Shown here: piece after piece, positions 2,323-19,209 of the stretch
Numbering within the stretch: position 1 is the first letter of the stretch
Layout of the letters: each line of letters starts with the position of its first letter
NCBI RefSeq assembly: GCF_044324785.1
Contig: NZ_CP172127.1
Origin: Escherichia coli
GTDB lineage: Bacteria; Pseudomonadota; Gammaproteobacteria; Enterobacterales; Enterobacteriaceae
Length of the DNA: 64,000 nucleotides
Strand: one strand, 5' to 3'
Notes under the pieces: generated by a model
What the model saw: only the letters and a program-made list of their open reading frames with translations
Database searches by the model: none
What the model was told of the DNA's origin: nothing
Position numbers and translations under genes: made by a program

Positions 2323-3891
2323 TTAGCGTGCCGGCTGAGTAGTCGTGGAAGACTGCTCAAAGTGATAGCGACCGGTTTTCAGGCTGCTTGGGCCGAGGCG
2401 TGCAAACTTGAACATTAAGAACAATTCTGCCACCAGGAACAGGGTATACAGGCCGCAAATCAGCACCATTGAGAAGATGAGGTCGCCTGCGGTCAGTGAC
2501 GAGTTCGCCACAGCTGTCGGCAGCACTTCACCGATAGCCCACGGTTGGCGGCCATATTCAGCCACAAACCAGCCCGCTTCTACAGCAATCCACGGCAGCG
2601 GAATACCGTACAGCGCGGCGCGCAGCAGCCATTTTTTCTCGCCAATGCGGTTGCGGATGACACTCCAGAAAGAGAGCGCGATGATTGCCAGCAGCAGGAA
2701 GCCACACGCCACCATGATACGGAACGCGAAGTACAGCGGCGCTACACGTGGAATGGAGTCTTTGGTTGCCTGTTGAATCTGCGCTTCAGTTGCATCCGCC
2801 ACGTTTGGCGTATAGCGTTTCAGCAGCAGACCGTAACCGAGGTCTTTCTTCATGCTATTGAACTGATCACGAACCGCCTGGTCGGTAGAACCAGAACGCA
2901 GTTGCTCGAGCAGAGAGTACGCCTTCATCCCGTTACGAATGCGTTCTTCATGCTGCACCATCAGTTCTTTCAGGCCGATAACTGGAGTATCCACGGAACG
3001 CGTTGCAATGATGCCCAGCGCGTAAGGGATCTGGATCGCAAATTTGTTCGTCTCCTCTTCCTGATCAGGAATGCCGAACAGAGTAAAGGCAGCAGGCGCA
3101 GGTTGCGTTTCCCACTCGGCTTCAATAGCAGCCAGTTTGGTTTTCTGCACGTCGCCCATTTCGTAGCCGGATTCATCACCCAGAACAATAACAGACAGAA
3201 CGGCAGCCATACCGAAGCTGGCAGCGATAGCAAAGGAGCGTTTAGCGAAGGCGAAGTCACGACCTTTCAGCATATACCATGCGCTGATACCGAGGATGAA
3301 CATCGCGCCAGTCACATAACCAGACGCTACAGTGTGAACGAATTTCACCTGAGCAACCGGGTTAAGCACCAGCTCGGAGAAGCTCACCATCTCCATACGC
3401 ATAGTTTCAAAGTTGAAATCGGATGCGATTGGGTTTTGCATCCAGCCGTTCGCAACCAGAATCCACAGTGCGGACAGGTTTGAACCGAGCGCCACCAGCC
3501 AGGTGACACACATATGCTGAACTTTACCCAGACGATCCCAACCGAAGAAGAACAGACCTACAAAGGTGGATTCGAGGAAGAAGGCCATCAGACCTTCGAT
3601 TGCCAGCGGCGCACCGAAGATATCCCCTACATAGTGGGAATAGTAAGACCAGTTAGTCCCGAACTGGAACTCCATGGTCAGACCGGTAGCCACACCCAGA
3701 GCGAAGTTGATACCAAACAACTTGCCCCAGAACTTGGTCATATCTTTATAAATCTGTTTGCCGGAAAGGACGTAGACCGTTTCCATAATGGCCAGCAGGA
3801 ACGCCATACCGAGCGTCAGTGGCACAAAAAGGAAGTGGTACATCGCGGTCAAGGCAAACTGTAAGCGCGACAGTTCGACTATATCTAACAT
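2323..3891 (-). CDS. cydA: Cytochrome bd-I ubiquinol oxidase subunit I
   Basis: ORF-track frame 2323-3894 (MMLDIVELS...); start placed at the second Met ([12 protein letters not shown]...) to give the 522 aa expected for CydA. Confidence 0.96.
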
Positions 3892-4228
3892 CATGACTCC
3901 TTGCTCATCGCATGAAGACTCCGAGAGTGAACCCCGTTAGAAAGGGTCACACGCATGCCCCAATACAAAATTATTTGCTCGCCTCTATCGTTGCCATTTC
4001 ATCAAAAGAGGAAAAGACAATGATAAAAAAGTTACAAATATGTTAATGAATAAACCAAATTGATCCCGTAATTATATTACGCCGCAAAATCCTTACAATA
4101 AACAGGTTTTTATTGAGCAAATTTGCATTTTTCGACAGTGATCAATTTATAGCGAAATTGTCACGACATCACCAATTTGATCTACGACAATTTATCGTGT
4201 TTTGCAGATTTTTTTCAAGAATTAAAAA

Positions 4229-4242
4229 TTGATTTATATCAA
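4229..4242 (-). promoter_or_regulatory. Perfect FNR-type box TTGAT-N4-ATCAA in the cydAB upstream regulatory region
   Basis: TTGATTTATATCAA read directly in the AT-rich region upstream of cydA; cydAB is a known FNR/ArcA-controlled operon. Confidence 0.5.
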
Positions 4243-4696
4243 AATCAGCCAAATATGTTAATTATGTATAAACCATAGATCATTGGTAATTTTATTGTTA
4301 ATTTATTGTGAAATATTTATGCAACACAATTATTACAATGAAAAAGTATAGATAAAAAACCAGTGTTTTATTTAACAGAACCGCCCTATCCACTTTTTAT
4401 AATACCAATTGATTAGAGTAGCCAATTTGTTGCTATTTTACATAACATATTTTTATCAAAGTTAATTGATTGTTGCCTTTATGAGCACCGACCGTAAGCC
4501 CGTTATGTTATTGTTTCATTAGTAATAATCACTTAAATGTATCGATAAAACAGGTATGACTTAGCGGGAGTGATTGTTTCTGAGTGAACAGAGGACACTT
4601 TCGCCTGATAAATGAAAAATGAGCGATTTTTGCAAGTTAGTTTTTCTATAGCCGAGTACGCTCAGCGCCTCGCTTGATTACAATGAGGTTGCTGCT

Positions 4697-5641
4697 ATGA
4701 GTCCTGATAATATCGGTTCGGCTGTCAATCGCTTCTTAGGTTGGCCATCTAATGATCCTCTAAAAACAGATAACGAATCAATGACATCACCCGTGACTGT
4801 GCAGGTAATAAAGATGATTGCCGCCATCCTTGACCCACATCGGATAGTCGTTGGAATCGATACACTTTATACAACGCAGCGCGAAACATTTACCTCAGAG
4901 AGTCAACAGCTCATTGAATCAGCATTGCAAACACTTCATGTGATGAATTTAAATAACCTGGAAACAAATCTCGATGAGGAAGGTCACTATCTGGCTTTTG
5001 GATATAACGTTGACACTCCTGACAGAATAACCGTTTCTGCTTATAATGAAAAAAAGCCTGGCTGCTATGGTCAATGTCTTTTAATACAGGATGACGAAAC
5101 AGACTTATTTAACCTGATAAAAGTTAAAATTTTTGAAACCAGGCATAATTATGTCGCTCAATTGATGAGCGATCCGGAATTTATGTTCAAATTTAGTTAT
5201 AGCGCTCAACAAAATAGATTAGAACCTCATCTTCTGGTTCCCACTTATTTCCCTCTAAAAACAAACGAACCGGTTACGCAAGAGGATGTACTGTTACTTT
5301 ATCGTTTCTTTAAAATGGATGGTGATTTTAATATATTAACATCAGATGAATACATGAGTATCATGACACCTCTGATGAAGTGTGAGCGCAGCATCCACGA
5401 CCACAACAGGTATGTGACGGGCAAAGATACCCTTCTTCTGGACTATCCTCCTTCTGGTAACCAGATATATTTCCATATTTTTCCTGACGAATCAGCAACA
5501 CTAGTCCTTTATTTTTCAAACAATGACATTGAATGTTTCGTCTTTGAAAGAGATATTCCGAGCCAGTATCGCTTTTTCAAAATGTTTACCAATCTGGCAC
5601 TGGTTATTGATCAGTTAACCGATGCCAATCAAATACTTTAA
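4697..5641 (+). CDS. Hypothetical protein, 314 aa, AT-rich, no recognisable domain
   Basis: Long ORF with GAGG upstream of the ATG; markedly AT-rich versus flanking core genes; no signal peptide, P-loop or other motif I recognise. Confidence 0.6.
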   Translation: MSPDNIGSAVNRFLGWPSNDPLKTDNESMTSPVTVQVIKMIAAILDPHRIVVGIDTLYTTQRETFTSESQQLIESALQTLHVMNLNNLETNLDEEGHYLAFGYNVDTPDRITVSAYNEKKPGCYGQCLLIQDDETDLFNLIKVKIFETRHNYVAQLMSDPEFMFKFSYSAQQNRLEPHLLVPTYFPLKTNEPVTQEDVLLLYRFFKMDGDFNILTSDEYMSIMTPLMKCERSIHDHNRYVTGKDTLLLDYPPSGNQIYFHIFPDESATLVLYFSNNDIECFVFERDIPSQYRFFKMFTNLALVIDQLTDANQIL

Positions 5642-5721
5642 TTTTTATATATTCCCTGTGGCAAATATTGCTAAACAATGCCCGGGGATTAATTTTTATT
5701 ACTCACGGAAAGATTTAAATA

Positions 5722-6144
5722 ATGATCCCATCTCAAATCTCTTTCAACACCCTTCCTGTCAATGCAACATACGCTTCAGAGACAACAGTTGACACACAAA
5801 AATTCTCTGACATCCTCTACTCAGCGGGGTGTTCCCTAAAGGATCTGGCTTATCTGAGCAGATGTCTGGCATCAATACATCCGACTATCGCCAAAAACAT
5901 TTATGAAACAGAAAATCTCAGCGATCAAAAATTACTGCATATTGATTGCCGTAGTACAAATGAAATCAAGATAAATATCTTTTTTGGTCAACAACGAGAA
6001 GGATTAATTGAAATTAATTCTGACACTGTCATTTTTCCGATATTGTCTTCATTAATTGACTCCGCCATTTCTAAATTTCAACACCAAATCCCCGTTAACG
6101 GTTCAGTAAATCCTGACCTATTGTATGAGGATTATACTGATTAA
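5722..6144 (+). CDS. Hypothetical protein, 140 aa, AT-rich, no recognisable domain
   Basis: ORF 80 bp downstream of 4697-5641 on the same strand with the same AT-rich composition; Ser/Thr-rich N-terminus (MIPSQISFNTLPVNATYASETTV...). Confidence 0.5.
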   Translation: MIPSQISFNTLPVNATYASETTVDTQKFSDILYSAGCSLKDLAYLSRCLASIHPTIAKNIYETENLSDQKLLHIDCRSTNEIKINIFFGQQREGLIEINSDTVIFPILSSLIDSAISKFQHQIPVNGSVNPDLLYEDYTD

Positions 6145-6691
6145 ATCCCTCCTGTCGCGAAAAATGGCCTGCGTTATTGCCAGACGTAATAAAACTTTTG
6201 ATTAACGTTACTCGTACTGGTAGCACCTTCATGTACTTTTCTTTTTTACGAAAAATCAAAAGAGCTAACAAAGGTCATAATTCGCATGAATCATTAATTA
6301 TTTGTTATTTTCAACATTATTTTTACATTAAGCAGAGATGAATTGCAGTGAAATTCGACTTAACTTTTATGAAATGCATTTACTCATGGCTAAAGCCACG
6401 TCACAAAAATGCAAATTAGAAGTTGATCACAATTATCTCAATACATCAAATCAAGTTAATTTTAAAAATTTAACATTCATGACATTAGTTGACATAACAC
6501 ACTGAATTAAAATGATAATTTGAAAACACACTTTAAACAATCATTTCCCGAAAGACATTTTGAAAATAGATCAATTGCAACATTACGGTCAGATAAAGAC
6601 ACTCCTGTGATATTAAACCTGTGCCGTTATGAGCGGCCATAAATACGACGTGTGTAACTTATTTTACTCTCTGTCTTACAAAGGATTACCC

Positions 6692-7141
6692 ATGAAGAAA
6701 GCAACACTTGTGATTGGCGTTATTGGCGCGGACTGCCATGCAGTAGGCAATAAAGTTCTGGACCGAGTTTTTAGCAACCATGACTTCAGAGTTATTAATC
6801 TGGGCGTAATGGTCAGCCAGGACGAATATATTGATGCTGCCATTGAAACTGGTGCTGACGCGATTGTCGTCTCCTCTATCTATGGGCATGGCGATATCGA
6901 TTGTCTGGGCATGCGCGAACGCTGCATCGAGCGTGGGCTGGGTAACATCCTGCTCTATGTGGGCGGTAACCTGGTGGTCGGAAAACATGACTTCGCTGAC
7001 GTGGAAACCAAGTTCAAAGAGATGGGATTTGATCGCGTCTTTTCCCCAAGTCATGACTTAGAAGATGTTTGTCAGCTGATGGCCCACGATATCAACCAAC
7101 GTCATGACGTTGATACTCGCATTCTTGAAGAGGCAATCTGA
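6692..7141 (+). CDS. glmS: Glutamate mutase (methylaspartate mutase) S subunit, B12-binding
   Basis: [24 protein letters not shown]... carries the cobalamin-binding DxHxxG-type motif and resembles clostridial GlmS/MutS; start at the internal Met with an AGGA RBS rather than the ORF-track start at 6629. Symbol follows clostridial nomenclature, not glucosamine-6-P synthase. Confidence 0.9.
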
Positions 7142-8529
7142 TGCAAATCGTCTCTGTCGATATTGGATCGACGTGGACCAAAGCAGCCCTCTTCACCCGG
7201 GAGGGGGACGCGTTAACGTTGGTTAACCACGTTCTGACCCCAACCACCACCCATCATCTGGCGAAGGGGTTTTTCTCCAGCCTGGACCAGGTGTTAAACG
7301 TAGATAATGCCCTCCCCCTGTTAAACAGTGGTGAGGTTGCATTGAAGTATTCCTCCTCTGCCAAAGGTGGGCTGGCGGTTGCCGCAATGGGATTGGTGCC
7401 TTCTATCACCCTGGAAACCGCGAAAGTAACCGCTCACTCTGCGGGGGCTAAAATTGCGCAATATTACGCCTACAAGCTGAACCGCCGTGATATCCAGGCA
7501 CTGGAAGAAACGCAGCCCGATATTCTCTTGTTCACCGGCGGCACCGACGGCGGAGAAGAAAGCTACGGCCTGAATAACGCCCGTGTGCTGGCAGAATCCA
7601 AACTCGACTGCGCCATTATTTATGCCGGAAACCGGGATATTCAGGACGAGGTGCAGGAGATCCTAGGGCATAAAGACCTGACCATCGTCGACAATGTTCT
7701 GCCCGATCTTGACCATCCGAACCCTTTAGCTGCACGCCAGGCTATCTGCGACATATTCCTTAAACGCATCGTTAAAGGGAAAGGGCTGGATGTCGTTGTT
7801 GATAAAACAGGCGAAGAACCAATGCCGACACCGTGGACAGTCTTTGAACTGGTTAAGGCAATCAGTAATGTCGATCACAGCTGGAAAGAGTTCATGCTGA
7901 TCGACATGGGTGGCGCAACCACCGATGTCTATTCCGCCTGTGCCAACACGCTCTCGCCCGACACCGTTTTACACGGCGTACCGGAACCCTTCGTGAAACG
8001 GACGGTGGAAGGCGATCTGGGAATGCGCGTCTCGGCAATGGTGGTTGGTGAAAGTGCGAAAGAGTTAGTCAATGTGAATTTTGCTCAGCAACCCGCACAG
8101 CTGGACGCTTTTTATCATTACCTCCGTCATCTAGTCGCTCATCCCGACTACTTACCCGCGAATGCAGAAGAAAAATATTTCGATACCGTCCTGGCCGGAC
8201 TGTGTGTGGGTTATGCCACCGAAAGACATGCGGGCACCAAAAAAGAGGTCTGCACCTGCGTCGGCAATGTCGATTTACAGATGGGACGTGACCTGACAAC
8301 CGTGCGTAAAGTCGTCGGATCCGGCGGATGGCTCTCGCGTGCCAGTCAGTTCGATATGCATCACTGGTTGAAATACCGCGAGTTAAACGACGACGGTAAA
8401 CGCATTCTCTTACCGACCGAATTTGAATATTACCGCGATTCCCGGGGGCTATTACCACTGCTGGCAAACGTCGCCAGAGTCGATCCACTGGCCGCCGCGC
8501 GCACCAGTATTCAATGCTTAACCCTATAA
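7141..8529 (+). CDS. glmL: Glutamate mutase-associated GlmL/MutL-type protein (actin-like ATPase family)
   Basis: 462 aa ORF between the S and E subunit genes, as in clostridial glmS-glmL-glmE; N-terminus [18 protein letters not shown] typical of the sugar-kinase/actin fold; ATGA overlap with glmS. Confidence 0.8.
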   Translation: MQIVSVDIGSTWTKAALFTREGDALTLVNHVLTPTTTHHLAKGFFSSLDQVLNVDNALPLLNSGEVALKYSSSAKGGLAVAAMGLVPSITLETAKVTAHSAGAKIAQYYAYKLNRRDIQALEETQPDILLFTGGTDGGEESYGLNNARVLAESKLDCAIIYAGNRDIQDEVQEILGHKDLTIVDNVLPDLDHPNPLAARQAICDIFLKRIVKGKGLDVVVDKTGEEPMPTPWTVFELVKAISNVDHSWKEFMLIDMGGATTDVYSACANTLSPDTVLHGVPEPFVKRTVEGDLGMRVSAMVVGESAKELVNVNFAQQPAQLDAFYHYLRHLVAHPDYLPANAEEKYFDTVLAGLCVGYATERHAGTKKEVCTCVGNVDLQMGRDLTTVRKVVGSGGWLSRASQFDMHHWLKYRELNDDGKRILLPTEFEYYRDSRGLLPLLANVARVDPLAAARTSIQCLTL

Positions 8530-8547
8530 CAATTAAGGCTGCAATCA

Positions 8548-9993
8548 ATGGAACTTCGAAATAAGAAATTAACCCATGACGAATTCATGACCGAGCGGCA
8601 ACAGGTACTGAAAACCTGGGAAACCGGCAAGGATGTTGAAAACTTTGAAGATGGCGTTAAATACCAACAAACCATTCCTGAGCATAAACGCTTCTCTCTT
8701 GCGCTGTTGAAAGCAGACAAGGAAGGTAAAACCCTTAGCCAACCGCGCGCAGGTGTGGCGCTGATGGACGAACACATCGAACTACTGAAAACACTACAAG
8801 AAGAGTGCGATCTGCTGCCGAGCACCATCGATGCATATACCCGTCTGAATCGGTACGAAGAAGCGGCTGTAGGGATTAAAAAATCCATCGAAGCCGGAAC
8901 CTCTAAACTGAACGGTTTACCGGTAGTTAACCACGGCGTCGCAGCTTGCCGTCGCCTCACCGAAACTTTGCAAAAACCGCTACAGATCCGCCACGGCACG
9001 CCAGATGCGCGTCTGCTGGCTGAAATCTCGATGGCCAGCGGCTTTACCAGTTATGAAGGCGGCGGCATTTCCTACAATATTCCGTATGCCAAGCGCGTAA
9101 CGCTGGAAAAATCGATCCGCGACTGGCAGTACTGCGACCGTTTAATGGGGATGTATGAAGAACACGGGATCCGCATCAACCGCGAACCGTTTGGCCCACT
9201 AACGGGTACGCTGATCCCGCCGTTTATCTCGCACTCTATCGCGATAATCGAAGGATTACTGGCGCTGGAACAGGGTGTGAAATCTATCACCGTTGGTTAT
9301 GGACAGGTCGGCAGCCTGACGCAGGATGTTGCGGCGATCCAGTCTCTGCGTGAACTTGCACATGAATACTTTCAGAGCTATGGCTATACCGACTATGAAT
9401 TAAGTACCGTGTTTCACCAGTGGATGGGCGGCTTTCCGGAAGACGAATCGAAAGCGTTCGCTATTATCTCCTGGGGCGCAGCCGTCGCGGGGATGTCTGG
9501 TGCCACCAAAGTCATCACCAAAAGTCCGCACGAAGCCTGGGGTATCCCGACTGCCGCTGCCAACATTCAGGGGCTGAAAGCCTCCCGCCAGATGCTCAAC
9601 ATGGTCAATGAGCAGAAATTCCCGCCGTGCCCTGCGGTTGAACTGGAAATTGAACTGATTAAGAGCGAGGTTCGCGCGGTACTGAATAAAGTGTTCGAAC
9701 TGGGTAATGGTGATATTGCGCGCGGTACGGTGCTGGCATTTGAAGCGGGCGTACTGGATGTGCCGTTTGCGCCAGCCGCCTGCAACGCGGGCAAAATTCT
9801 TCCGGTCCGTGACAACACCGGCGCAATACGCGTACTGGAAGCCGGAGCCGTTCCATTGCCAAAAGATATTCTCGACCTCCACCACGATTACGTTGCGGAA
9901 CGCGCACGCTTTGAAGGACGCCAACCGACATTCCAGATGGTTGTAGATGACATCAATGCTGTATCCCACAGTAAATTAATAGGAAGACCATAA
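8548..9993 (+). CDS. glmE: Glutamate mutase (methylaspartate mutase) E subunit
   Basis: 481 aa ORF, size and position of the catalytic E subunit; adjacent to the S subunit and methylaspartate ammonia-lyase. Confidence 0.9.
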   Translation: MELRNKKLTHDEFMTERQQVLKTWETGKDVENFEDGVKYQQTIPEHKRFSLALLKADKEGKTLSQPRAGVALMDEHIELLKTLQEECDLLPSTIDAYTRLNRYEEAAVGIKKSIEAGTSKLNGLPVVNHGVAACRRLTETLQKPLQIRHGTPDARLLAEISMASGFTSYEGGGISYNIPYAKRVTLEKSIRDWQYCDRLMGMYEEHGIRINREPFGPLTGTLIPPFISHSIAIIEGLLALEQGVKSITVGYGQVGSLTQDVAAIQSLRELAHEYFQSYGYTDYELSTVFHQWMGGFPEDESKAFAIISWGAAVAGMSGATKVITKSPHEAWGIPTAAANIQGLKASRQMLNMVNEQKFPPCPAVELEIELIKSEVRAVLNKVFELGNGDIARGTVLAFEAGVLDVPFAPAACNAGKILPVRDNTGAIRVLEAGAVPLPKDILDLHHDYVAERARFEGRQPTFQMVVDDINAVSHSKLIGRP

Positions 9994-11234
9994 TGAAAAT
10001 AAAACAGGCTCTGTTCACCGCTGGCTACTCCTCATTCTATTTCGATGACCAGCAGGCGATAAAAAACGGAGCGGGTCATGACGGCTTTTTTTATACCGGG
10101 GAGCCAGTAACACAGGGGTTTAACGCCGTACGTCAGGCCGGGGAGTGCGTATCGGTACAGTTGATTCTGGAAAACGGCGCGGTCGCTGTAGGTGACTGTG
10201 CTGCCGTACAGTATTCCGGGGCAGGTGGTCGCGATCCACTGTTCCTCGCAGAGCACTTTATTCCGTTCCTCAACGACCATATTAAGCCATTACTGGTAGG
10301 CCGCGATGTAGATGCTTTCCTGCCGAATGCCCGTTTCTTCGACAAATTGCGTATTGACGGCAACTTGCTACATACCGCCGTACGCTACGGATTATCACAG
10401 GCGCTGCTTGATGCTACCGCGCTGGCAACCGGCCGTCTGAAAACTGAAGTGGTCTGTGATGAATGGCAGTTGCCACGCGTGGCGGAATCCATTCCATTAT
10501 TTGGTCAGAGCGGGGACGATCGATATATCGCCGTCGATAAGATGATCCTTAAGGGCATCGACGTGCTGCCCCATGCACTGATTAATAACGTCGAAGAGAA
10601 ACTGGGCTTTAAAGGTGAAAAACTGCGCGAATATGTCCGCTGGCTGTCGGATCGTATTCTGAGCAAGCGCACCAGCGCACGCTACCACCCTACCCTGCAC
10701 ATCGATGTATACGGCACTATCGGTCTGATCTTCGATATGGATCCGCTTCGCTGTGCGCAATACATCGCCAGCCTGGAAAAAGAAGCGCAAGGCCTGCCGC
10801 TCTACATTGAAGGGCCGGTCGATGCCGGTAACAAGACCGATCAAATTCGCCTGCTGACCGCGATTACCAAAGAGCTGACGCGCCTCGGTTCCGGCGTGAA
10901 AATTGTGGCCGATGAATGGTGTAACACCTACCAGGATATTGTTGATTTCACTGATGCCGCCAGTTGCCACATGGTGCAAATCAAAACCCCGGATCTGGGC
11001 AGTATTCACAACATCGTCGATGCAGTTCTTTATTGCAACAGCCACAGCATGGAAGCGTACCAGGGCGGCACCTGCAATGAAACTGATGTCAGTGCCCGCA
11101 CCTGTGTCCACGTCGCCCTTGCCGCTCGCCCCATGCGTATGCTGGTAAAGCCAGGGATGGGCTTTGACGAAGGCCTCGATATCGTCTTCAACGAAATGAA
11201 TCGTACTATCGCGCTGTTGCAGGCTAAGGATTAA
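9993..11234 (+). CDS. mal: 3-Methylaspartate ammonia-lyase (beta-methylaspartase)
   Basis: 413 aa enolase-superfamily-like ORF, 1-nt overlap with the glmE stop; size and context match methylaspartate ammonia-lyase. Confidence 0.88.
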   Translation: MKIKQALFTAGYSSFYFDDQQAIKNGAGHDGFFYTGEPVTQGFNAVRQAGECVSVQLILENGAVAVGDCAAVQYSGAGGRDPLFLAEHFIPFLNDHIKPLLVGRDVDAFLPNARFFDKLRIDGNLLHTAVRYGLSQALLDATALATGRLKTEVVCDEWQLPRVAESIPLFGQSGDDRYIAVDKMILKGIDVLPHALINNVEEKLGFKGEKLREYVRWLSDRILSKRTSARYHPTLHIDVYGTIGLIFDMDPLRCAQYIASLEKEAQGLPLYIEGPVDAGNKTDQIRLLTAITKELTRLGSGVKIVADEWCNTYQDIVDFTDAASCHMVQIKTPDLGSIHNIVDAVLYCNSHSMEAYQGGTCNETDVSARTCVHVALAARPMRMLVKPGMGFDEGLDIVFNEMNRTIALLQAKD

Positions 11235-11237
11235 CAA

Positions 11238-12608
11238 ATGGCTCGTTCTTTTAAAGTCTTATCGCCAACGGCAATCCTCGGGTATGGATTCCCGGAAGAG
11301 AGCTTCCGCAAAGCGATGGCAGAATCGCCCGATCTGATCGCCGTTGATGCAGGCTCTTCCGATCCAGGCCCCCACTACCTCGGGGCGGGCAAACCGTTTA
11401 CCGATCGCGCAGGGGTCAAGCGCGATCTGCGCTATATGATCACCGCAGGCGTTCAAAATAATATACCGGTGGTGATCGGAACGGCCGGCGGTTCTGGTGC
11501 CGCTCCACACCTGGAGTGGTGCCGAGAAATAATTCATGAGATTGCCCGGGAAGAGCACCTCTCGTTCTCGATGGCGCTGATCCCAGCAGACGTTGACAAA
11601 GCCATCGTCCACCAGGCGCTGGATAACGGCAAAATCACGGCGCTGGATTTTGTCCCGCCGTTAACCCACGACGCGATTGACGAAAGTACGTATATCGTCG
11701 CGCAAATGGGCATCGAACCCTTCCAGCGGGCGCTGAAAGAAGGCGCGCAAGTGGTGCTGGGCGGGCGCGCTTACGACCCGGCCTGCTTTGCTGCGCTACC
11801 GATCATGCAAGGCTTTGATGAAGGTCTGGCGCTGCATTGCGGGAAAATCCTTGAATGCGCGGCAATCGCCGCAACGCCCGGCTCAGGCTCTGACTGTGCG
11901 ATGGGCATCATTGATGACAACGGCTTTACGCTGAAGACATTTAATCCGAAGCGTAAATTTACCGAAACGTCAGCAGCTGCACACACACTGTATGAGAAAT
12001 CCGATCCCTACTTCCTGCCAGGACCTGGCGGCGTGTTGAACCTGAAAGGCTGCACATTTAAAGCGGTCAATGACGGCGAAGTGTACGTCAGCGGTTCTAA
12101 GCATGAAGAAACGCCGTATGCCCTGAAACTGGAAGGTGCGCGACGGGTGGGCTTCCGCTGTCTGACCATCGCCGGAACGCGCGACCCGATCATGATCGCC
12201 GGGATCGATAAAATCATCGATGAAGTCAAAACCAGCGTTTCGCGTAACCTGTCGCTCGACGATGACAGCATTCGCATCAATTTCCACCTGTACGGCAAAA
12301 ACGGGGTGATGGGCGACCATGAACCGATGCAAACTGCCGGGCATGAGCTGGGGATTGTCCTAGATGTAGTTGCACCGACCCAGGAAATTGCCAACAGCGT
12401 TTGCTCGCTGGTGCGCTCTACTATGCTGCACTACGGCTATGAAAACCGCATCGCTACCGCAGGCAACCTGGCGTTCCCGTTCTCCCCTTCTGATATCCAG
12501 GGCGGGCCAGTATACGAATTTTCCATATATCACCTGATTGAAGCCAACGACGCTCTGCGTTTTGATTTCCATATTGAACAGGTGACGCCAGAAGGAGTTC
12601 AGGCATGA
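11238..12608 (+). CDS. Uncharacterised protein, 456 aa (possibly AtuA/DUF1446-like)
   Basis: ORF 4 bp downstream of mal, same strand and GC content as the cluster; family assignment is from memory of architecture only. Confidence 0.7.
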   Translation: MARSFKVLSPTAILGYGFPEESFRKAMAESPDLIAVDAGSSDPGPHYLGAGKPFTDRAGVKRDLRYMITAGVQNNIPVVIGTAGGSGAAPHLEWCREIIHEIAREEHLSFSMALIPADVDKAIVHQALDNGKITALDFVPPLTHDAIDESTYIVAQMGIEPFQRALKEGAQVVLGGRAYDPACFAALPIMQGFDEGLALHCGKILECAAIAATPGSGSDCAMGIIDDNGFTLKTFNPKRKFTETSAAAHTLYEKSDPYFLPGPGGVLNLKGCTFKAVNDGEVYVSGSKHEETPYALKLEGARRVGFRCLTIAGTRDPIMIAGIDKIIDEVKTSVSRNLSLDDDSIRINFHLYGKNGVMGDHEPMQTAGHELGIVLDVVAPTQEIANSVCSLVRSTMLHYGYENRIATAGNLAFPFSPSDIQGGPVYEFSIYHLIEANDALRFDFHIEQVTPEGVQA

Positions 12609-12922
12609 AACAGTCAATTGTCTCACTGGCGCAAGTCATTCGTTCGAAAAATGCCGGACCTTACGAACTGGTTTTAGATATTTTATTTAAAACCAAAGAA
12701 AACTATGAGCGAGTTAAATCATCAGGGCAATTAACCCCAGAACTGATTGCGCGCTTATATCATGTTGAACCTGACTTTATTCACCGTATTGTCTGGTTTG
12801 ATCCTTCTAACGCAGTAAAAATCGTCATGCCACGAGATATTATCTCCGGGAATGTAGGTGACAATGATGTCTATGGTGCACAGCAACATGCACCTTTATT
12901 AAATATGAGTTTCGATTTGTAA
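12605..12922 (+). CDS. Uncharacterised small protein, 105 aa (possibly DUF4387-like partner)
   Basis: ORF overlapping the previous stop by 4 nt (translational coupling). Confidence 0.6.
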   Translation: MKQSIVSLAQVIRSKNAGPYELVLDILFKTKENYERVKSSGQLTPELIARLYHVEPDFIHRIVWFDPSNAVKIVMPRDIISGNVGDNDVYGAQQHAPLLNMSFDL

Positions 12923-13000
12923 AAATCCGAACATTTTTAGCCAACTGACATCCCGTCACTTATTGCAGTTCAACACTTCAGCTATTTGTAAGGTTGTAAT

Positions 13001-13040
13001 AGCAGGTAGATGCCTGAATCTCTATTCGGGCATCTACTTC
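13001..13040 (+). other. Stem-loop (GTAGATGCC...GGCATCTAC) between the enzyme genes and the symporter gene
   Basis: 9-bp perfect inverted repeat read directly, followed by a pyrimidine-rich stretch; possible internal terminator or attenuator. Confidence 0.3.
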
Positions 13041-13082
13041 TCCTGATTCTGATTTATCGCCGTGCACCTGATGGAGGAAAAA

Positions 13083-14363
13083 ATGAAGAAAATAAGTTTA
13101 ACCACGATGATTCTTTTGGCGCTGGTACTTGGAATGATTATCGGCGTAGTGCTCAATAACACTGCTTCACCGGAAACCGCAAAACTCTATGCGCAAGAAA
13201 TATCGATATTCACGACGATTTTCTTACGACTGATAAAAATGATTATCGCTCCGTTAGTGGTCTCTACCCTGGTGGTAGGTATAGCTAAAATGGGCGATGC
13301 CAAAGCCCTTGGTCGTATTTTTTCTAAAACACTCTTTTTATTTATTTGCGCCTCATTGCTGTCAATTGCCTTAGGCTTGATAACAGTAAATTTCTTCATG
13401 CCAGGCACAGGAATTAATTTTGTTGCACACGGAGCCGAAACCACCGGAGTGGTCGCGTCAGAACCCTTTACGCTAAAAGTATTTATTTCGCATGCTTTCC
13501 CCACCAGCATTGTCGATGCCATGGCGCACAATGAAATTTTGCAAATCGTGGTGTTCTCAATTTTCCTCGGCTGTAGCCTGACGGCGATTGGCGAGAAAGG
13601 CAGCGCCATCGTTCACGCCTTAGATTCGCTGGCACATGCCATGTTAAAGCTCACTGGCTACGTCATGCTCTTCGCTCCCCTGACCGTATTCGCTGCTATT
13701 TCAGCATTGATTGCTGAACGAGGACTGGCAGTTATGGTGAGCGCCGGGATCTTTATGGGTGAATTTTATTTCACCATGTTATTACTTTGGGTGCTGCTTA
13801 TCGGTCTGGCCATCGTTTATGTCGGCCCCTGCATCAGACGCCTGACCCGCGCCCTTTCGGAACCCGCCCTGCTGGCATTTACCACATCCAGTTCTGAAGC
13901 GGCTTTTCCGGGAACGCTTGAAAAACTGGAGCAATTTGGCGTTTCCCCCAAAATTGCCAGCTTTGTCTTACCCATTGGCTACTCATTTAATCTCGTTGGA
14001 TCAATGGCCTACTGCTCCTTCGCCACAGTTTTCATCGCCCAGGCCTGCAATATCCATTTATCCATCGGTGAGCAAATCACCATGCTGTTGATCCTGATGT
14101 TGACCTCGAAAGGAATGGCTGGCGTACCACGCGCCTCAATGGTGGTTATCGCCGCCACGCTCAACCAGTTCAATATTCCGGAAGCGGGGCTGATCTTGCT
14201 GATGGGCGTTGATCCGTTCCTTGATATGGGGCGTTCCGCGACAAACGTCATGAGCAACGCAATGGGCGCTGCGATGGTGAGTCGGTGGGAAGGCGAACAT
14301 TTCGGCGAGGGCTGTCGGGGTAAAGCATTAAAACCCAATGAATCGAACGTTGCTCTGCCCTGA
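13083..14363 (+). CDS. Dicarboxylate/amino acid:cation symporter (DAACS, GltP-like); likely glutamate uptake
   Basis: About 426 aa polytopic membrane protein; start placed at the ATG preceded by GGAGG (ORF track starts at 13062). Confidence 0.85.
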   Translation: MKKISLTTMILLALVLGMIIGVVLNNTASPETAKLYAQEISIFTTIFLRLIKMIIAPLVVSTLVVGIAKMGDAKALGRIFSKTLFLFICASLLSIALGLITVNFFMPGTGINFVAHGAETTGVVASEPFTLKVFISHAFPTSIVDAMAHNEILQIVVFSIFLGCSLTAIGEKGSAIVHALDSLAHAMLKLTGYVMLFAPLTVFAAISALIAERGLAVMVSAGIFMGEFYFTMLLLWVLLIGLAIVYVGPCIRRLTRALSEPALLAFTTSSSEAAFPGTLEKLEQFGVSPKIASFVLPIGYSFNLVGSMAYCSFATVFIAQACNIHLSIGEQITMLLILMLTSKGMAGVPRASMVVIAATLNQFNIPEAGLILLMGVDPFLDMGRSATNVMSNAMGAAMVSRWEGEHFGEGCRGKALKPNESNVALP

Positions 14364-14470
14364 GGGGGATCTTAAGCAATCAGAAGCCAATGACTACGCA
14401 TTTTTATAAGCCGGATCATGAAGTTAGACGGCAATTAAGTAACACTAACGTTTAAGGTGAAAAGTGAAAT

Positions 14471-16123
14471 ATGTCCAAACCATTTATCTGGCAAGAACCG
14501 TTTCTACAAAATAAAGACGGTACAGAATATACATTAATTAGCGATCAACATATTACAGTAACGGAATTAGACGGCGAAGAAGTGATAAAAATCGCTCCTG
14601 AAGCATTAACGCTGCTTGCCCGGCAGGCATTTTATGAAGCCTCTTTTTTCTTACGTTCCGCTCATTTGCAACAGGTCGCCAGCATTCTTAACGATCCGCA
14701 GGCCAGTAGTAATGATAAATACGTTGCGTTGCAGTTATTACGTAATGCTGAAGTCTCAGCAAAAGGGGTATTACCCAACTGTCAGGATACCGGCACCGCA
14801 ACTATTGTTGCCAGTAAAGGGCAACAGATATGGACCGGAGGTAACGACGCCGAAGCCTTAAGCAAAGGCATTTACACCACTTTTCAGGAAAATAATCTGC
14901 GCTTTTCACAAAATGCGCCACTGGATATGTATACCGAAGTCAATACGCAAACCAATCTACCGGCGCAGATTGATATCAGCGCCGTCGCTGGTGATGAGTA
15001 CCATTTTCTCTGTATTAATAAAGGGGGCGGCTCTGCCAATAAAGCCGCGCTTTATCAGGAAACAAAATCCCTATTGCAACCAGAAAAACTGACCGCATTT
15101 TTAATCGAAAAAATGAAATCGCTGGGCACCGCTGCCTGCCCGCCTTACCACATCGCCTTTGTCGTCGGAGGGCTTTCAGCCGATCAAACCTTAAAAGTTG
15201 CCAAGCTGGCCTCAACGAAATATTACGACAATTTGCCCACCAGCGGAAACGCGCAGGGACAAGCATTCCGTGATATTGAGTTGGAAAAAGCGTTGCTCAA
15301 CGCCAGTCAGCAATTTGGTATTGGTGCGCAATTTGGGGGTAAATATTTCGCTCATGATATTCGCGTCATTCGTCTGCCGCGTCACGGTGGCTCTTGCCCG
15401 ATAGCTATGGCGCTCTCCTGTTCTGCCGATCGCAATATCAAAGCAAAAATTAACAAGCACGGTATCTGGCTGGAAAAACTCGTACACAATCCGGGGCAAT
15501 ATATTCCAGCCTCACTGCGGGAAGAAAATCACCCGCAACATGTACAGCTGGATCTAAACCGTCCGTTGCGTGACGTGATGCAGGATCTCGCCAGATTACC
15601 GGTAGGCACCCGCGTGTCGTTAAATGGTCCCATCGTAGTGGCGCGCGATATCGCCCACGCCAAAATAAAAGCGCGGCTGGATAGCGGCGAACCGATGCCG
15701 GATTACCTGAAGCATCATATTGTCTATTACGCTGGCCCGGCGAAAACACCTGAGAACATGGCCTGCGGTTCACTGGGTCCAACCACGGGTGGACGAATGG
15801 ACGGTTATGTCGATACCTTCCAGGCGGTTGGCGGCAGTCTGGTGATGTTATCGAAAGGTAACCGCAGCCAGCAGGTCACCGATGCCTGTCACAAACATGG
15901 CGGCTTCAATCTGGGAAGTATTGGCGGTGCAGCAGCGTTACTGGCGCAAGAATATGTCAAAAGTCTGCGTTGCCTGGAATACCCGGAGCTGGGTATGGAA
16001 GCGGTGTGGATGATGGAAGTGGAAAATCTGCCCGCATTCATCCTGGTAGATGATAAAGGCAATAATTTCTTTAGTCAGTTTGAGCAGCAACACCGCTGCG
16101 CCAGTTGCCCTGCGGGACATTAA
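14471..16123 (+). CDS. Class I (Fe-S) fumarate hydratase paralogue; candidate mesaconase
   Basis: 550 aa ORF co-linear with the FumA/FumB family ([11 protein letters not shown]..., GSCP and CxxC motifs); located inside the methylaspartate cluster. Confidence 0.9.
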
Positions 16124-16132
16124 GGAAAATGA

Positions 16133-16735
16133 ATGGAAGCGCGAATTTCAACTGAACGGCATGTGCAGCGCCAGCAGAAATTGAAGGAACAGGTCGATAC
16201 GCGCGTCGCGGCGGCGATAGAGAAAAAAGGGATCTTGATTGTTTTCACCGGCAACGGCAAAGGGAAATCCACTGCCGCGTTTGGTACTGTGACGCGCGCG
16301 GTGGGTCATGGCAAAACGGTGGGGGTTGCGCAGTACATCAAGGGGCAATGGGACAACGGCGAATACAACCTTCTCCAGCCGCTGGGGGTTGAGTTTCATA
16401 TTATGGGAACCGGTTTTACCTGGGAGACACAGAACCGGCAAGCGGATATCGACGCGGCGAAAGAGGTCTGGTCGGAAAGCAAACGGATGCTGGCTGACAA
16501 GCGTTACGACTTAGTGGTGCTTGATGAGCTGACCTATATGCTGGCTTACCATTATCTGGACACCGAAGAAGTGATCGCTTCTCTGCAAAACCGCCCGGCA
16601 CAACAAAGTGTCATTGTCACCGGACGCGGTTGCCACAGTCAGATATTAAAAATGGCGGATACGGTCAGCGAAATCCGCCCCGTCAAACATGCTTTTGATA
16701 ACGGCATTCAGGCGCAGCCGGGTATCGACTGGTAA
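16133..16735 (+). CDS. Corrinoid (cob(I)alamin) adenosyltransferase, BtuR/CobA family
   Basis: 200 aa ORF with P-loop VFTGNGKGKSTAAFG; strongly resembles BtuR; would supply adenosylcobalamin to glutamate mutase. Confidence 0.9.
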   Translation: MEARISTERHVQRQQKLKEQVDTRVAAAIEKKGILIVFTGNGKGKSTAAFGTVTRAVGHGKTVGVAQYIKGQWDNGEYNLLQPLGVEFHIMGTGFTWETQNRQADIDAAKEVWSESKRMLADKRYDLVVLDELTYMLAYHYLDTEEVIASLQNRPAQQSVIVTGRGCHSQILKMADTVSEIRPVKHAFDNGIQAQPGIDW

Positions 16736-16738
16736 TAA

Positions 16739-16765
16739 CTGCGCCTGGCATCCCGCCAGGCGCAG
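16739..16765. terminator. Bidirectional stem-loop between convergent adenosyltransferase and LysR genes
   Basis: CTGCGCCTGGCATCCCGCCAGGCGCAG palindrome read directly. Confidence 0.5.
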
Positions 16766-16768
16766 GTT

Positions 16769-17674
16769 TTACATCTCCTGCGGTACGACCGATTTCGCCA
16801 GCAACCATTCACGAAATTGCTGCAAGTGCGGCGAGTCAGACTTCTCTTCCTGCCACGTCATAATAAAACGATTACCGGTACGAATAGGCACATCACAGGG
16901 AATCACCATATCGCCACTATCCAAATCATGTTGAATAGCGAACCGTGGTAACAGCGCCACGCCGAGATTAGAGCGCACGGCGGCAATCAGCATTGAAAGC
17001 AAATCGAAACGTGGTCCGTTGTTGACCAGCGGACTGCTAACGCCAGATAAGGCAAACCACTCTTCCCAGCCAGTAATACGGGTACTTTGATGCAGAAGTG
17101 GTAACTCTGTAAGCAGTTCTGCCACTGACAGTTTTTGATCGGACATTGCAAGCAAACTGCCGCTGCATACCGGCAAAATCTCTTCTTCAAAGAGATATTC
17201 TACTTCCGCCCAGGGCGCGCAAAAATTTTCGCGCATAATGACAGCATCGTACTCCCGATTAAGAAAATCGCCGTTATTAGCTAAAGAGTGAATATTAACA
17301 ATAATATCGGGATGTAACTTTGTGAATTCATGTAAATTTGGGATTAACCAGTGGGTACTAAACGTAGGATTCACGGCAAGTTCAATAACCTGAACCGTAG
17401 GCTGCCAGGTCATAATGGTATTGGTATCGCGTTCCAGCTTATTTAATGTTTCTTTTACTATCCCCAGGTAATACTTCCCTGCATCATTAAGAAAAATACG
17501 TTTTTTAGAGTGTGAAAATAACGGAGTATGTAAAAATTCCTCCAGCGCACTCACTTGTCTGAATACTGCACTTTGGGTTAACGCTAACTCCTCTGCCGCT
17601 CTGGTATAACTTTCATGACGTGCGACGACCTCAAAAGTCACCAGCAGTTCCGTTTTAGGTATTTTCCCTCGCAT
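16769..17674 (-). CDS. LysR-family transcriptional regulator
   Basis: 301 aa ORF with N-terminal HTH (...YTRAAEELALTQSAVFRQVSALE...) and LTTR-type C-terminal domain. Confidence 0.9.
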   Translation of the reverse strand: MRGKIPKTELLVTFEVVARHESYTRAAEELALTQSAVFRQVSALEEFLHTPLFSHSKKRIFLNDAGKYYLGIVKETLNKLERDTNTIMTWQPTVQVIELAVNPTFSTHWLIPNLHEFTKLHPDIIVNIHSLANNGDFLNREYDAVIMRENFCAPWAEVEYLFEEEILPVCSGSLLAMSDQKLSVAELLTELPLLHQSTRITGWEEWFALSGVSSPLVNNGPRFDLLSMLIAAVRSNLGVALLPRFAIQHDLDSGDMVIPCDVPIRTGNRFIMTWQEEKSDSPHLQQFREWLLAKSVVPQEM

Positions 17675-17943
17675 AATGCCGTCCCTTAAAAATAGTTTAA
17701 ACCATCAAAAATACATTACTTATTACGAAGTAATGGTAACCAAAGCAGCAATAAATAATTTATAAGAATCATGATTGACATTTATAACCCAGTAAGCCTG
17801 GCGTGACAAATATCTTAATCAGATAATAATAATCCGAAAAGCACAGCGCCTTTCGAATTATCCGGAATCACATTAAGTGAAAATTATTAAATTGATATCA
17901 TTTATCATATCTGTGGATATTATGATAAACAATCAACAAAGAT

Positions 17944-18187
17944 TTTATTTTTGATTTATAGCATATCCCTCTAAGAATTTTTGCGATGCTGCAATATCCG
18001 GGGTAAAGACCCGATCCTGGCTGACAAATGGCACGACTTGACGATAAGCGGTGAACATCGCTTTTGTTGATTTACTTAACGCTACGGTCAAACGCTGGGA
18101 AGCCAGTGCATCAGGTAACGATTCGAAATTCGCCGTCGTTCTTATTCGTGGCTTGCGGTCGGTTGCGGCAATCCACAGTGGCTGTGG
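17944..18187 (-). pseudogene. Possible 3' gene remnant (about 80 codons open, no convincing start)
   Basis: Manual minus-strand translation: ...PLWIAATDRKPRIRTTANFESLPDALASQRLTVALSKSTKAMFTAYRQVVPFVSQDRVFTPDIAASQKFLEGYAINQK*; only an internal ATG; sits at the island/sucD boundary. Confidence 0.25.
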
Positions 18188-18236
18188 TCATGCAGTCAAG
18201 CCAGCGGTCAGATTTCGACCGTGGTTAACGTTTAAG

Positions 18237-18339
18237 GCATAAAAAAGGCCATCATACGATGGCCAACCATGTCGAAACCGACAGCCCTTCGCCATTCCTG
18301 TAGAGGGAAGCGGCGAGGGCTATTTCTTATTACAGATAT
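18237..18339 (-). ncRNA. sdhX: sucD 3'UTR-derived sRNA SdhX (RybD) with intrinsic terminator
   Basis: Directly after the sucD stop on the minus strand; ends in hairpin GGCCATCGTATGATGGCC plus T-tract (18241-18264); identity with SdhX is from memory of the K-12 3'UTR. Confidence 0.4.
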
Positions 18340-19209
18340 TTATTTCAGAACAGTTTTCAGTGCTTCACCGATATCCGCCAGGCTGCGAACGGTTTTCACG
18401 CCTGCGGCTTCCAGAGCAGCGAATTTCTCATCCGCAGTCCCTTTACCACCGGCAATGATGGCACCTGCGTGACCCATACGTTTGCCTTTCGGCGCAGTCA
18501 CACCAGCGATGTAACCCACAACTGGCTTGGTAACGTGCTCTTTGATGTACGCAGCCGCTTCTTCTTCAGCGCTACCGCCGATCTCACCGATCATCACGAT
18601 CGCTTCGGTCTGCGGATCTTTTTCGAACATTTCGAGGATGTCGATAAAGTTAGAGCCAGGGATCGGGTCGCCGCCGATACCAACACAGGTCGACTGACCG
18701 AAACCGTAATCCGTGGTCTGTTTAACCGCTTCATAGGTCAGTGTACCGGAACGGGAAACGATACCCACTTTACCCGGTTTGTGAATGTGACCAGGCTGGA
18801 TACCGATTTTGCATTCACCCGGAGTGATAACGCCTGGGCAGTTCGGGCCGATCATGCGAACGCCCGCTTCATCCAGTTTCACCTTCACGGTCAGCATATC
18901 CAGCGTCGGGATGCCTTCAGTGATGGTGATAATCAGTTTGATGCCTGCATCGATAGCTTCCAGAATGGAGTCTTTGCAGAACGGTGCTGGTACGTAGATA
19001 ACAGAAGCGGTAGCGCCAGTAGCAGCAACAGCTTCACGCACGGTGTTGAACACCGGCAGGCCGAGGTGGGTAGTACCGCCTTTACCTGGGGTTACGCCGC
19101 CAACCATTTTGGTGCCGTATGCAATGGCCTGTTCAGAGTGGAAAGTCCCCTGGCTACCGGTAAAGCCCTGGCAGATAACCTTGGTGTTTTTATCAATTAA
19201 AATGGACAT
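18340..19209 (-). CDS. sucD: Succinyl-CoA synthetase alpha subunit
   Basis: 289 aa ORF ([33 protein letters not shown]...). Confidence 0.97.

Follow-up and report, generated by a model that had tools for sequence, protein, structure and literature searches.

A probable glutamate-catabolic methylaspartate pathway operon at the hypervariable cydA-sucD site of an Escherichia coli genome

We analyzed a 64,000-nt stretch of an Escherichia coli chromosome (contig NZ_CP172127.1; hereafter, the window) in which cydA (2323-3894, minus strand) and sucD (18340-19209, minus strand) flank an accessory segment. Between them lie 12 intact genes: two orphan genes, the series glmS-glmL-glmE-mal-cmlA-cmlB-DAACS symporter-fumD-cobO, and a convergent lysR. 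All 12 open reading frames (ORFs) equal their annotated O157:H7 counterparts in length and have no internal stops, and the genes are tightly packed, with overlaps of 1 to 4 nt at glmS/glmL, glmE/mal, and cmlA/cmlB. The genes listed in the original prediction, made from the sequence alone, were all present, intact, and in the order given, and profile matches supported its account of an accessory segment with a B12-dependent glutamate mutase, a methylaspartase, a class I fumarase paralogue, a transporter, an adenosyltransferase, and a LysR regulator. It had also rightly noted that mngR-mngA-mngB is missing here; no mngRAB gene lies between cydA and sucD in the window, at the site where K-12-type genomes carry them.

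Comparisons by blastn placed the inter-strain variable segment between 4268 (relative to K-12-type loci) or 4533 (relative to loci with a TPR gene at this site) and 18236, with left-side homology stopping at 4267 and 4532, respectively (L003, L004, and L005). This segment is wider than the predicted span of 4697-17674, whose ends are the first start codon and the start codon of lysR. The left junction (4268..4696) is AT-rich, noncoding, and beyond the cydA regulatory region. The right junction (17693..18237) consists of gene fragments, identified by blastn and tblastn against L010, L011, and L012: a histidine ammonia-lyase-like gene of the hut operon is represented by its final 47 codons (17945-18085) and by codons 378-397 (18077-18136), and an rtcB paralogue by two 3' pieces (18142-18198 and 18199-18237). 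No integrase, transposase, or other mobility gene is annotated in the collinear O157:H7 locus, no tRNA genes occur within the window, and the only repeats flanking the island were chance-level 17- to 27-mers, so we rejected a mobile (integrative) element. An Rfam E-value scan of 3800-18500 gave no match to a cobalamin riboswitch or other known RNA element.

The AT-rich region upstream of glmS (6145..6691, plus strand; ∼34 to 38% GC) presumably holds the operon promoter and operator, and a promoter-like site, a consensus match only, lies at 6489-6516. We placed the start of glmS (6692-7141, plus) at the ATG at 6692, which has AGGA 8 nt ahead of it, and rejected a longer ORF starting at 6629. 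The product is the B12-binding sigma subunit of glutamate (methylaspartate) mutase (NF002612, 252 bits, cut-off 110; TIGR01501, 246 bits), and alignment to 1I9C_A showed the cobalamin motif D14-x-H16-x-x-G19 (DxHxxG). The mutase accessory/reactivating protein is encoded by glmL (mutL; 7141-8529, plus; NF040745, 511 bits, cut-off 475; TIGR01319, 892 bits) and the catalytic epsilon subunit by glmE (8548-9993, plus; TIGR01503, 865 bits, cut-off 390). In GlmE, alignment to 6H9E_B showed conservation of the substrate-binding residues R66, R100, R149, E171, and Y181 (Clostridium cochlearium numbering), and the dN/dS of glmE within E. coli is 0.01. Next is mal (9993-11234, plus; TIGR01502, 545 bits, cut-off 286), for 3-methylaspartate ammonia-lyase. 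Its product matched the Citrobacter amalonaticus enzyme 1KKO (E = 5e-269) and retained 10/10 checked residues (Q172, H194, D238, E273, D307, Q329, K331, T360, C361, and L384), which include the Mg2+ ligands and the catalytic Lys331 and His194. The last gene of the series, cobO (16133-16735, plus), encodes a CobA/BtuR-type ATP:cob(I)alamin adenosyltransferase (NF004637, 296 bits, cut-off 185; TIGR00708, 247 bits). Equivalog-level NCBIfam matches exceeded the curated cut-offs for glmS, glmL, glmE, mal, fumD, and cobO. The segment is thus predicted to supply both an adenosylcobalamin-dependent glutamate mutase and a 3-methylaspartate ammonia-lyase.

Downstream of mal, cmlA (11238-12608, plus) encodes an AtuA/DUF1446 family protein that matched PDB 9ERQ_A/9EVF over its full length (E = 1e-292; about 93% identity, no gaps), entries named “Citramalate lyase, subunit A (cmlA).” Its start overlapping cmlA by 4 nt, cmlB (12605-12922, plus) encodes a DUF4387 protein that matched 9ERQ_B, “Citramalate lyase, subunit B (cmlB),” likewise over its full length (E = 5e-57). 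The same two-subunit make-up is found in Raoultella planticola CmlAB (9ERQ/9EVF). The dN/dS of cmlA is 0.08 within E. coli, and the order glmS-glmL-glmE-mal-cmlA-cmlB is kept in Riflebacteria and two other distant genomes, with CmlA identity of 62 to 66%. The assignment draws on how the PDB entries name their molecules and on one preprint in which the enzyme was used, showing Raoultella CmlAB function in vivo (bioRxiv 10.64898/2026.01.16.699985); our literature search found no primary biochemical paper on CmlAB. By this homology, the E. coli protein would split citramalate directly into pyruvate and acetate, without CoA intermediates. The original prediction of two coupled unknown genes stands as to coupling, and the pair now has a name.

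Mesaconate hydration is predicted to fall to fumD (14471-16123, plus; NF011921, 1,274 bits, cut-off 1060), which encodes a class I fumarase acting as mesaconase (mesaconate to (S)-citramalate). The fused 550-aa protein is 97.6% identical to O157:H7 FumD, which has been characterized biochemically as a mesaconase with a kcat/Km for mesaconate of 2e6 M-1 s-1 (PMC4682846), and fumD has a dN/dS of 0.12 to 0.21 within E. coli. The DAACS-family dicarboxylate/amino acid:cation symporter (13083-14363, plus) scored 312 bits for DctA and 302 bits for GltP, both under the curated cut-offs, and therefore belongs to a distinct subfamily. We presume that it is the glutamate importer; it was called GltP in Fig. 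5 of PMC4682846. Between the convergent cobO and lysR, a GC-rich hairpin with an 11-bp stem (16739..16765) is probably a terminator serving both genes. The lysR product (16769-17674, minus) is a GcvA/DsdC-like LysR-family protein (NF008352, 221 bits, under the cut-off of 288) and the presumed regulator of the operon. A review of O-island regulators does not cover this gene.

We conclude that the segment is very probably an enterobacterial operon for glutamate breakdown by the methylaspartate (mesaconate) pathway, set in the hypervariable cydA-sucD interval. Glutamate would be taken up by the DAACS symporter. Based on homology and established biochemistry, GlmS and GlmE with adenosylcobalamin would convert it to (2S,3S)-3-methylaspartate, and GlmL would keep the mutase active. 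CobO would adenosylate salvaged cobalamin, since E. coli cannot synthesize B12 de novo. Judging from solved homologues, Mal would then remove ammonia to yield mesaconate. FumD would hydrate mesaconate to (S)-citramalate, as indicated by the biochemistry of the 97.6%-identical O157:H7 protein, and CmlAB would cleave citramalate directly to pyruvate and acetate, as suggested by the names of 9ERQ/9EVF and the in vivo work on the Raoultella orthologue (2026 preprint). The original prediction had the identity of the pathway right and called it near-complete; with CmlA and CmlB named as citramalate lyase, no step between glutamate and its products pyruvate, acetate, and ammonia would be missing.

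The cluster is already known, having been published by Kronen and Berg in 2015, who assigned no function to the DUF1446 gene and did not settle what becomes of citramalate (PMC4682846). Its occurrence outside E. coli has likewise been published. The O157:H7 cluster has the same genes, order, and chromosomal site; its DNA is collinear and 98.3% identical across 3001-19500, and its pathway proteins are 97.6 to 100% identical to those of the window, with allelic differences only. The clostridial cluster (C. tetanomorphum, C. tetani, and C. cochlearium) performs the same chemistry with homologous GlmS, GlmL (MutL), GlmE, and Mal. However, clostridia have a split mesaconase (MesA/MesB) and an acyl-carrier-dependent, CitDEF-type citramalate lyase with CitCXG maturation genes (PMC4682846), whereas the window has a fused FumA-like protein and the unrelated CmlAB; no genes for a CitDEF-like lyase, CitCXG, or split MesAB occur within 4268-18237. 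The window cluster also has a dedicated CobO and a LysR regulator, and the clostridial cluster has a GntR regulator. In the haloarchaeal methylaspartate cycle, succinyl-CoA:mesaconate CoA-transferase and mesaconyl-CoA hydratase serve in the activation of mesaconate to mesaconyl-CoA; both mesaconate CoA-transferase and mesaconyl-CoA hydratase are absent from the island gene list.

The cluster might instead serve mainly for the use of external C5-dicarboxylates (mesaconate, citramalate, or methylaspartate) rather than glutamate, with the symporter importing mesaconate and FumD and CmlAB yielding pyruvate and acetate with no need for B12. Consistent with such a role, mesaconate is the FumD substrate of highest catalytic efficiency (PMC4682846), engineered E. 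coli can grow on mesaconate with just FumA and CmlAB (bioRxiv 10.64898/2026.01.16.699985), the symporter scores no worse for DctA (C4-dicarboxylates) than for GltP, under the cut-off in both cases, and an Accumulibacter contig has cmlAB without glm or mal genes. We consider this improbable, because cotranscription of a B12-dependent mutase, its chaperone, a methylaspartase, and a dedicated adenosyltransferase, and very strong purifying selection on these genes (glmE dN/dS, 0.01), would be unexpected if only the lower half of the route mattered, and the glutamate-making hut genes in the long form of the island point to entry by glutamate. Entry at glutamate is thus the reading that we favor. 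The function of the cluster in E. coli is one that we infer, given that none of the conditions tried by Kronen and Berg led O157:H7 to express it; they detected neither methylaspartase activity nor anaerobic growth on glutamate, and cobalamins had no stimulating effect (PMC4682846).

These negative results in every condition tried would also fit a cryptic, decaying remnant, silenced and heading for loss with no current function in E. coli (PMC4682846). Repeated loss at the locus points the same way, as seen in the hut and rtcB fragments in the window, an internal deletion from cmlA to lysR in strain A34, and glmS and hutU fragments in TPR-type loci, and the GC content upstream of glmS (∼34 to 38%) would be typical of xenogeneically silenced DNA. 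Against this, all 10 pathway and regulator ORFs (10/10) are full length and intact both here and in O157:H7, >1,100 genomes retain at least 80% of the region, and dN/dS values of 0.01 to 0.2 indicate continuing protein-level selection. In addition, Asano and Kato are said to have purified 3-methylaspartase from an E. coli isolate in 1994. Decay without function is therefore very unlikely, and a working glutamate pathway remains our preferred interpretation.

Counting genomes that keep ≥80% of the region, 1117/5426 complete E. coli genomes (about 21%) carry the cluster; it is thus no rare marker of a metabolically unusual lineage, as had been proposed. In the 2015 paper by Kronen and Berg (PMC4682846), its share was 26.5% in E. 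coli and 90.6% in O157:H7. Alignment showed that K-12-type loci lack the cluster, and the arrangement is accordingly not one shared by essentially all relatives including K-12. At least eight arrangements make the cydA-sucD interval a hotspot, and some strains have the island alongside mngBAR, an rtcB paralogue, or a complete hut operon, which leads from histidine to glutamate. The island and mngBAR are not alternatives, since both are found in strains elppa5 and A34. The long form with hut genes was found in 145 genomes and has lysR between cobO and the hut operon. The hut ammonia-lyase and rtcB fragments at the right junction imply that the window form was trimmed by deletion from a longer island. 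Where a TPR gene occupies the site, fragments of glmS and hutU are kept, which implies that absence of the island there reflects loss; no island remnants were found in K-12-type loci. Absence of the island across strains is thus due at least in part to loss, and the history of the locus suggests that many lineages have undergone loss, not gain.

It is conceivable, if somewhat doubtful, that the 13-kb island is the trimmed remnant of a ∼22- to 30-kb catabolic island present at cydA-sucD early in E. coli evolution, that most lineages, including K-12, are loss variants, and that the 145 hut-bearing strains are overlooked histidine/glutamate fermenters. The gene run of such an ancestor may have been the orphan genes, the glm/mal/cml/fumD operon, lysR, the hut operon, the rtcB paralogue, and mngBAR, and it would have encoded conversion of histidine via glutamate to pyruvate, acetate, and ammonia. 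The hut-joined islands of the 145 genomes would take histidine by way of glutamate to pyruvate and acetate and can be likened to the hut and methylaspartate “oxidative histidine pathway” of gut anaerobes (bioRxiv 10.64898/2026.06.22.733842); in the window, unlike in that system, the hut genes are deleted and fragments are kept. In that preprint, which covers Firmicutes and Fusobacteria, E. coli served as a non-histidine-metabolizing control. The cluster would provide some E. coli, including most O157:H7, with the genetic capacity for anaerobic glutamate fermentation using salvaged B12. Glutamate is abundant in the gut, so the cluster could matter for colonization there, a point already published. 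Our update is that the long-missing last step, citramalate cleavage, has a named enzyme inside the operon and that, in a minority of strains, a hut operon is joined to the pathway.

The predicted island span also takes in two unrelated low-GC orphan genes that had gone unmentioned, encoding 314 aa (4697-5641, plus; 38% GC) and 140 aa (5722-6144, plus; 37% GC). Neither has a Pfam, NCBIfam, or PADLOC match or a significant PHROG match, and we rejected them as defense or phage genes (PADLOC, zero; PHROGs, a single match at E = 0.25). The 314-aa orphan is restricted to Escherichia: a word-indexed search of 5.8 billion proteins returned five protein clusters, all from this genus, and a full HMMER search for remote homologues among 1.8 billion representatives returned only fragments of the same protein. 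It is unrelated (E = 0.79) to the ∼315-aa gene 3' of cmlB in distant clusters, which encodes a P-loop protein. The two orphans are not significantly similar to each other (BLASTP E = 2.2) and were rejected as paralogues, and their predicted structures (mean pLDDT, 45.8 and 52.0) were too poor for a fold search. The 314-aa gene occurs in 1135/5426 complete E. coli genomes, and in E. coli the 140-aa gene always accompanies it. The orphan genes form a module distinct from the glm operon; in L006, an intact 64%-identical copy of the 314-aa gene adjoins cydA with the glm operon absent, alongside a decayed fragment of the 140-aa gene. Their dN/dS values are 0.35 to 0.50 (314 aa) and 0.17 to 0.36 (140 aa), and their products are the most divergent of the island relative to O157:H7 (93.3% and 96.4% identity).

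Between cydA (2323-3894, minus strand) and sucD (18340-19209, minus strand), ORF listing and family searches recovered every gene named in the original prediction. The genes glmS (6692-7141), glmL (7141-8529), glmE (8548-9993), mal (9993-11234), and cobO (16133-16735) each matched an NCBIfam equivalog far above the curated cutoff, and the class I fumarase gene fumD (14471-16123) scored 1274 bits against NF011921 (cutoff, 1060). An AtuA/DUF1446 gene (cmlA, 11238-12608) and a DUF4387 gene (cmlB, 12605-12922) were identified from family and PDB sequence matches, and a DAACS symporter (13083-14363) and a convergent LysR-family gene (16769-17674, minus strand) from family searches. The longest glmS ORF has 170 aa and begins at 6629; a start at 6692, which gives 149 aa, is backed by the family profile, by RefSeq, and by an AGGA 8 nt upstream. 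The symporter scored equally against the DctA and GltP models, under both curated cutoffs, and belongs to a distinct subfamily that may carry glutamate or C5-dicarboxylates. As predicted, mngR, mngA, and mngB are not among the cydA-sucD genes, and K-12-type loci carry them at the same position, in the order cydA-mngB-mngA-mngR-sucD.

The island is already known. Kronen and Berg (PLoS One 2015; PMC4682846) described the exact cluster in E. coli O157:H7, with frequencies of 26.5% in E. coli, 90.6% in O157:H7, and 14.8% in Enterobacteriaceae. The fumarase, which they called FumD, was shown to be a mesaconase/fumarase (kcat/Km for mesaconate, 2e6 M-1 s-1). They found no condition under which the cluster genes were expressed in O157:H7, and gave no function for the DUF1446 gene downstream of mal. 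Because citramalate lyase activity was not detected, the fate of (S)-citramalate was left “still unclear” (PMC4682846). The question of citramalate cleavage has since been answered by others.

The original prediction had described the route as near-complete and the AtuA/DUF1446 and DUF4387 genes as two coupled unknown genes. The glutamate pathway and the gene pair are indeed present, but the route is not left incomplete and the pair is not unknown, since PDB entries 9ERQ/9EVF name the two genes cmlA and cmlB, subunits of citramalate lyase. In a PDB sequence search, both proteins aligned over their full lengths and without gaps, the AtuA-family protein to 9ERQ_A/9EVF (E = 1e-292; “Citramalate lyase, subunit A (cmlA)”) and the DUF4387 protein to 9ERQ_B (E = 5e-57; “Citramalate lyase, subunit B (cmlB)”). 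The two-subunit Cml of Raoultella planticola, from I. Berg's laboratory, was used in work in which engineered E. coli required cmlAB to grow on mesaconate, as confirmed isotopically (bioRxiv 10.64898/2026.01.16.699985); our literature search found no primary publication on CmlAB. Distant CmlA proteins (62-66% identical) are encoded on a gut-metagenome contig and in two genomes, one of Rifleibacterium and one of 5.4 Mb, all three of which keep the order glmS-glmL-glmE-mal-cmlA-cmlB, and an Accumulibacter contig carries cmlAB on its own. These gene neighborhoods are independent support for the assignment of cmlAB as a citramalate lyase. Given the matches and the conserved neighborhoods, the encoded pathway is therefore complete. 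It would lead from glutamate through 3-methylaspartate, mesaconate, and (S)-citramalate to pyruvate and acetate. The observation behind the original prediction is thus confirmed, and its interpretation is supported with these corrections.

The gene directly 3′ of cmlB in distant glm-mal-cmlAB clusters outside the enterobacteria encodes a conserved protein of ∼315 aa (L015, 10712-11665; L016, 10698-11654; L017, 10677-11618). It has a Walker A motif (GAEGSGKSTLI), matches no Pfam family, and may be an uncharacterized accessory protein of the pathway. It is not the counterpart of the 314-aa orphan protein at the left end of the E. coli island, to which it is unrelated, and the E. coli operon lacks it.

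The flanks of the region (megablast of window 3900-18400) were found in 5425 of 5426 complete E. coli genomes, and ≥80% of the whole region was found in 1117 (20.6%). O157:H7 strain ATCC 43889 is collinear with window 3001-19500 at 98.3% identity; the twelve genes are also annotated there in RefSeq, each ORF is equal in length between the strains, and the pathway proteins are 97.6-100% identical. Homology to K-12-type loci ends at window 4267 and restarts at 18237, and that to TPR-repeat-gene loci ends at 4532, so the variable segment whose boundaries the original prediction had proposed to define spans ∼4268/4533 to 18236. It is bounded on the left by the cyd regulatory region, and its right end lies just past the sucD terminator hairpin (18247-18264). 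We found no tRNA within the window, no meaningful flanking repeats of the segment, and no mobility gene in the annotation of the collinear O157:H7 locus. The cydA-sucD site is a recombination/deletion hotspot, not an integrative element.

At least eight arrangements of the cydA-sucD interval occur among the E. coli loci compared: mngBAR alone (K-12 type), a TPR gene with mngBAR, a TPR gene alone, the island alone (the window and O157:H7), the island with an rtcB paralogue (strain 100248), the island with rtcB and mngBAR (strain elppa5), the same with an internal cmlA-to-lysR deletion (strain A34), and the island with a six-gene hut operon and rtcB (strain ampC_0069). The hut operon (hutU, permease, hutD, hutI, hutG, and a HutH-like ammonia-lyase) is directly joined to the island and occurs in 145 of the 5426 complete E. 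coli genomes (e.g., MS6198 and ampC_0069, the latter at NZ_CP046396.1 2940000-2972000, L012/L013). This junction, which we did not find noted for E. coli in the literature, would link histidine, via glutamate, to pyruvate and acetate in one contiguous route. Among the ∼1135 island-bearing genomes, ∼775 have the short form seen in the window, ∼145 keep rtcB without hut, and ∼145 keep both hut and rtcB; these counts are estimates from spread listings rather than exact values.

Remnants at the site bear on how these forms arose. Window 17348-18082 is 91.7% identical to the lysR-to-ammonia-lyase stretch of the hut-bearing form. Within the lysR-sucD spacer (17693-18237), tblastn detected two pieces of the HutH-like ammonia-lyase, residues 511-557 at 89% identity and 378-397 at 90%, followed by two 3′ pieces of the rtcB paralogue (18142-18198 and 18199-18237). 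The spacer thus holds pseudogene fragments, showing that a hut operon and rtcB were deleted in this lineage; O157:H7 has the same scars, since it is collinear with the window. Based on these scars, the short form arose by deletion from a longer island, which would also have made glutamate from histidine. The TPR-type loci (roughly 1090 genomes, judged by the 90-95% identity band of the megablast) keep residues 69-102 of glmS (E = 1e-5), directly adjoined by residues 24-44 of hutU, and also match the hutU-rtcB spacer at the nucleotide level; in two such loci, these remnants lie at L004 3338-3439 and L005 3339-3746. We therefore conclude that these loci lost the island by deletion and had not simply failed to acquire it. 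K-12-type loci hold mngBAR, and no island remnant was found in them; the cluster is not an arrangement common to K-12.

The pathway genes are intact. GlmS has the D14-x-H16-x-x-G19 cobalamin-binding motif, and alignment showed that GlmE retains R66, R100, R149, E171, and Y181, whose roles are known from the C. cochlearium structures. Mal, which matches the Citrobacter amalonaticus enzyme 1KKO (E = 5e-269), retains Q172, H194, D238, E273, D307, Q329, K331, T360, C361, and L384. Within E. coli, dN/dS was 0.01 for glmE, 0.08 for cmlA, and 0.12-0.21 for fumD; the pathway proteins are under purifying selection despite their reported silence in the laboratory. Genes overlap at glmS/glmL, glmE/mal, and cmlA/cmlB, and the other intergenic gaps are 3-18 nt, except for 160 nt before the symporter and 107 nt before fumD, a spacing that suggests a single operon with translational coupling. 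An 11-bp, GC-rich hairpin (16739-16765) lies between cobO and the convergent lysR, and an Rfam scan of 3800-18500 found no match in the island region to the cobalamin riboswitch or to any other family. In strain elppa5 (L010 14459-14917), an IS200C transposase is inserted in the cobO-lysR gap, where the window has its hairpin terminator.

The left end of the island holds two orphan ORFs of 314 aa (4697-5641) and 140 aa (5722-6144), with 37-38% GC versus 51% for the operon. Neither matched Pfam, NCBIfam, PADLOC, or PHROG. When HMMER was run in full against 1.8 billion representatives, no relatives outside Escherichia were found. Their AlphaFold models (pLDDT, 46 and 52) were too poor for use. 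They occur in the same E. coli genomes as the operon (1135/5426). A more distant Escherichia is represented by a contig (L006) whose cyd region is ∼90% identical. There, an intact, 64%-identical copy of the 314-aa gene adjoins cydA, the 140-aa gene survives as a decayed fragment, and the glm operon is absent; the orphans therefore form a separable module. Their dN/dS of 0.17-0.50 and the conservation of the ORF at 64% identity indicate that they are real but fast-evolving genes. A 258-aa protein without a family match also adjoins the 314-aa gene in L006.
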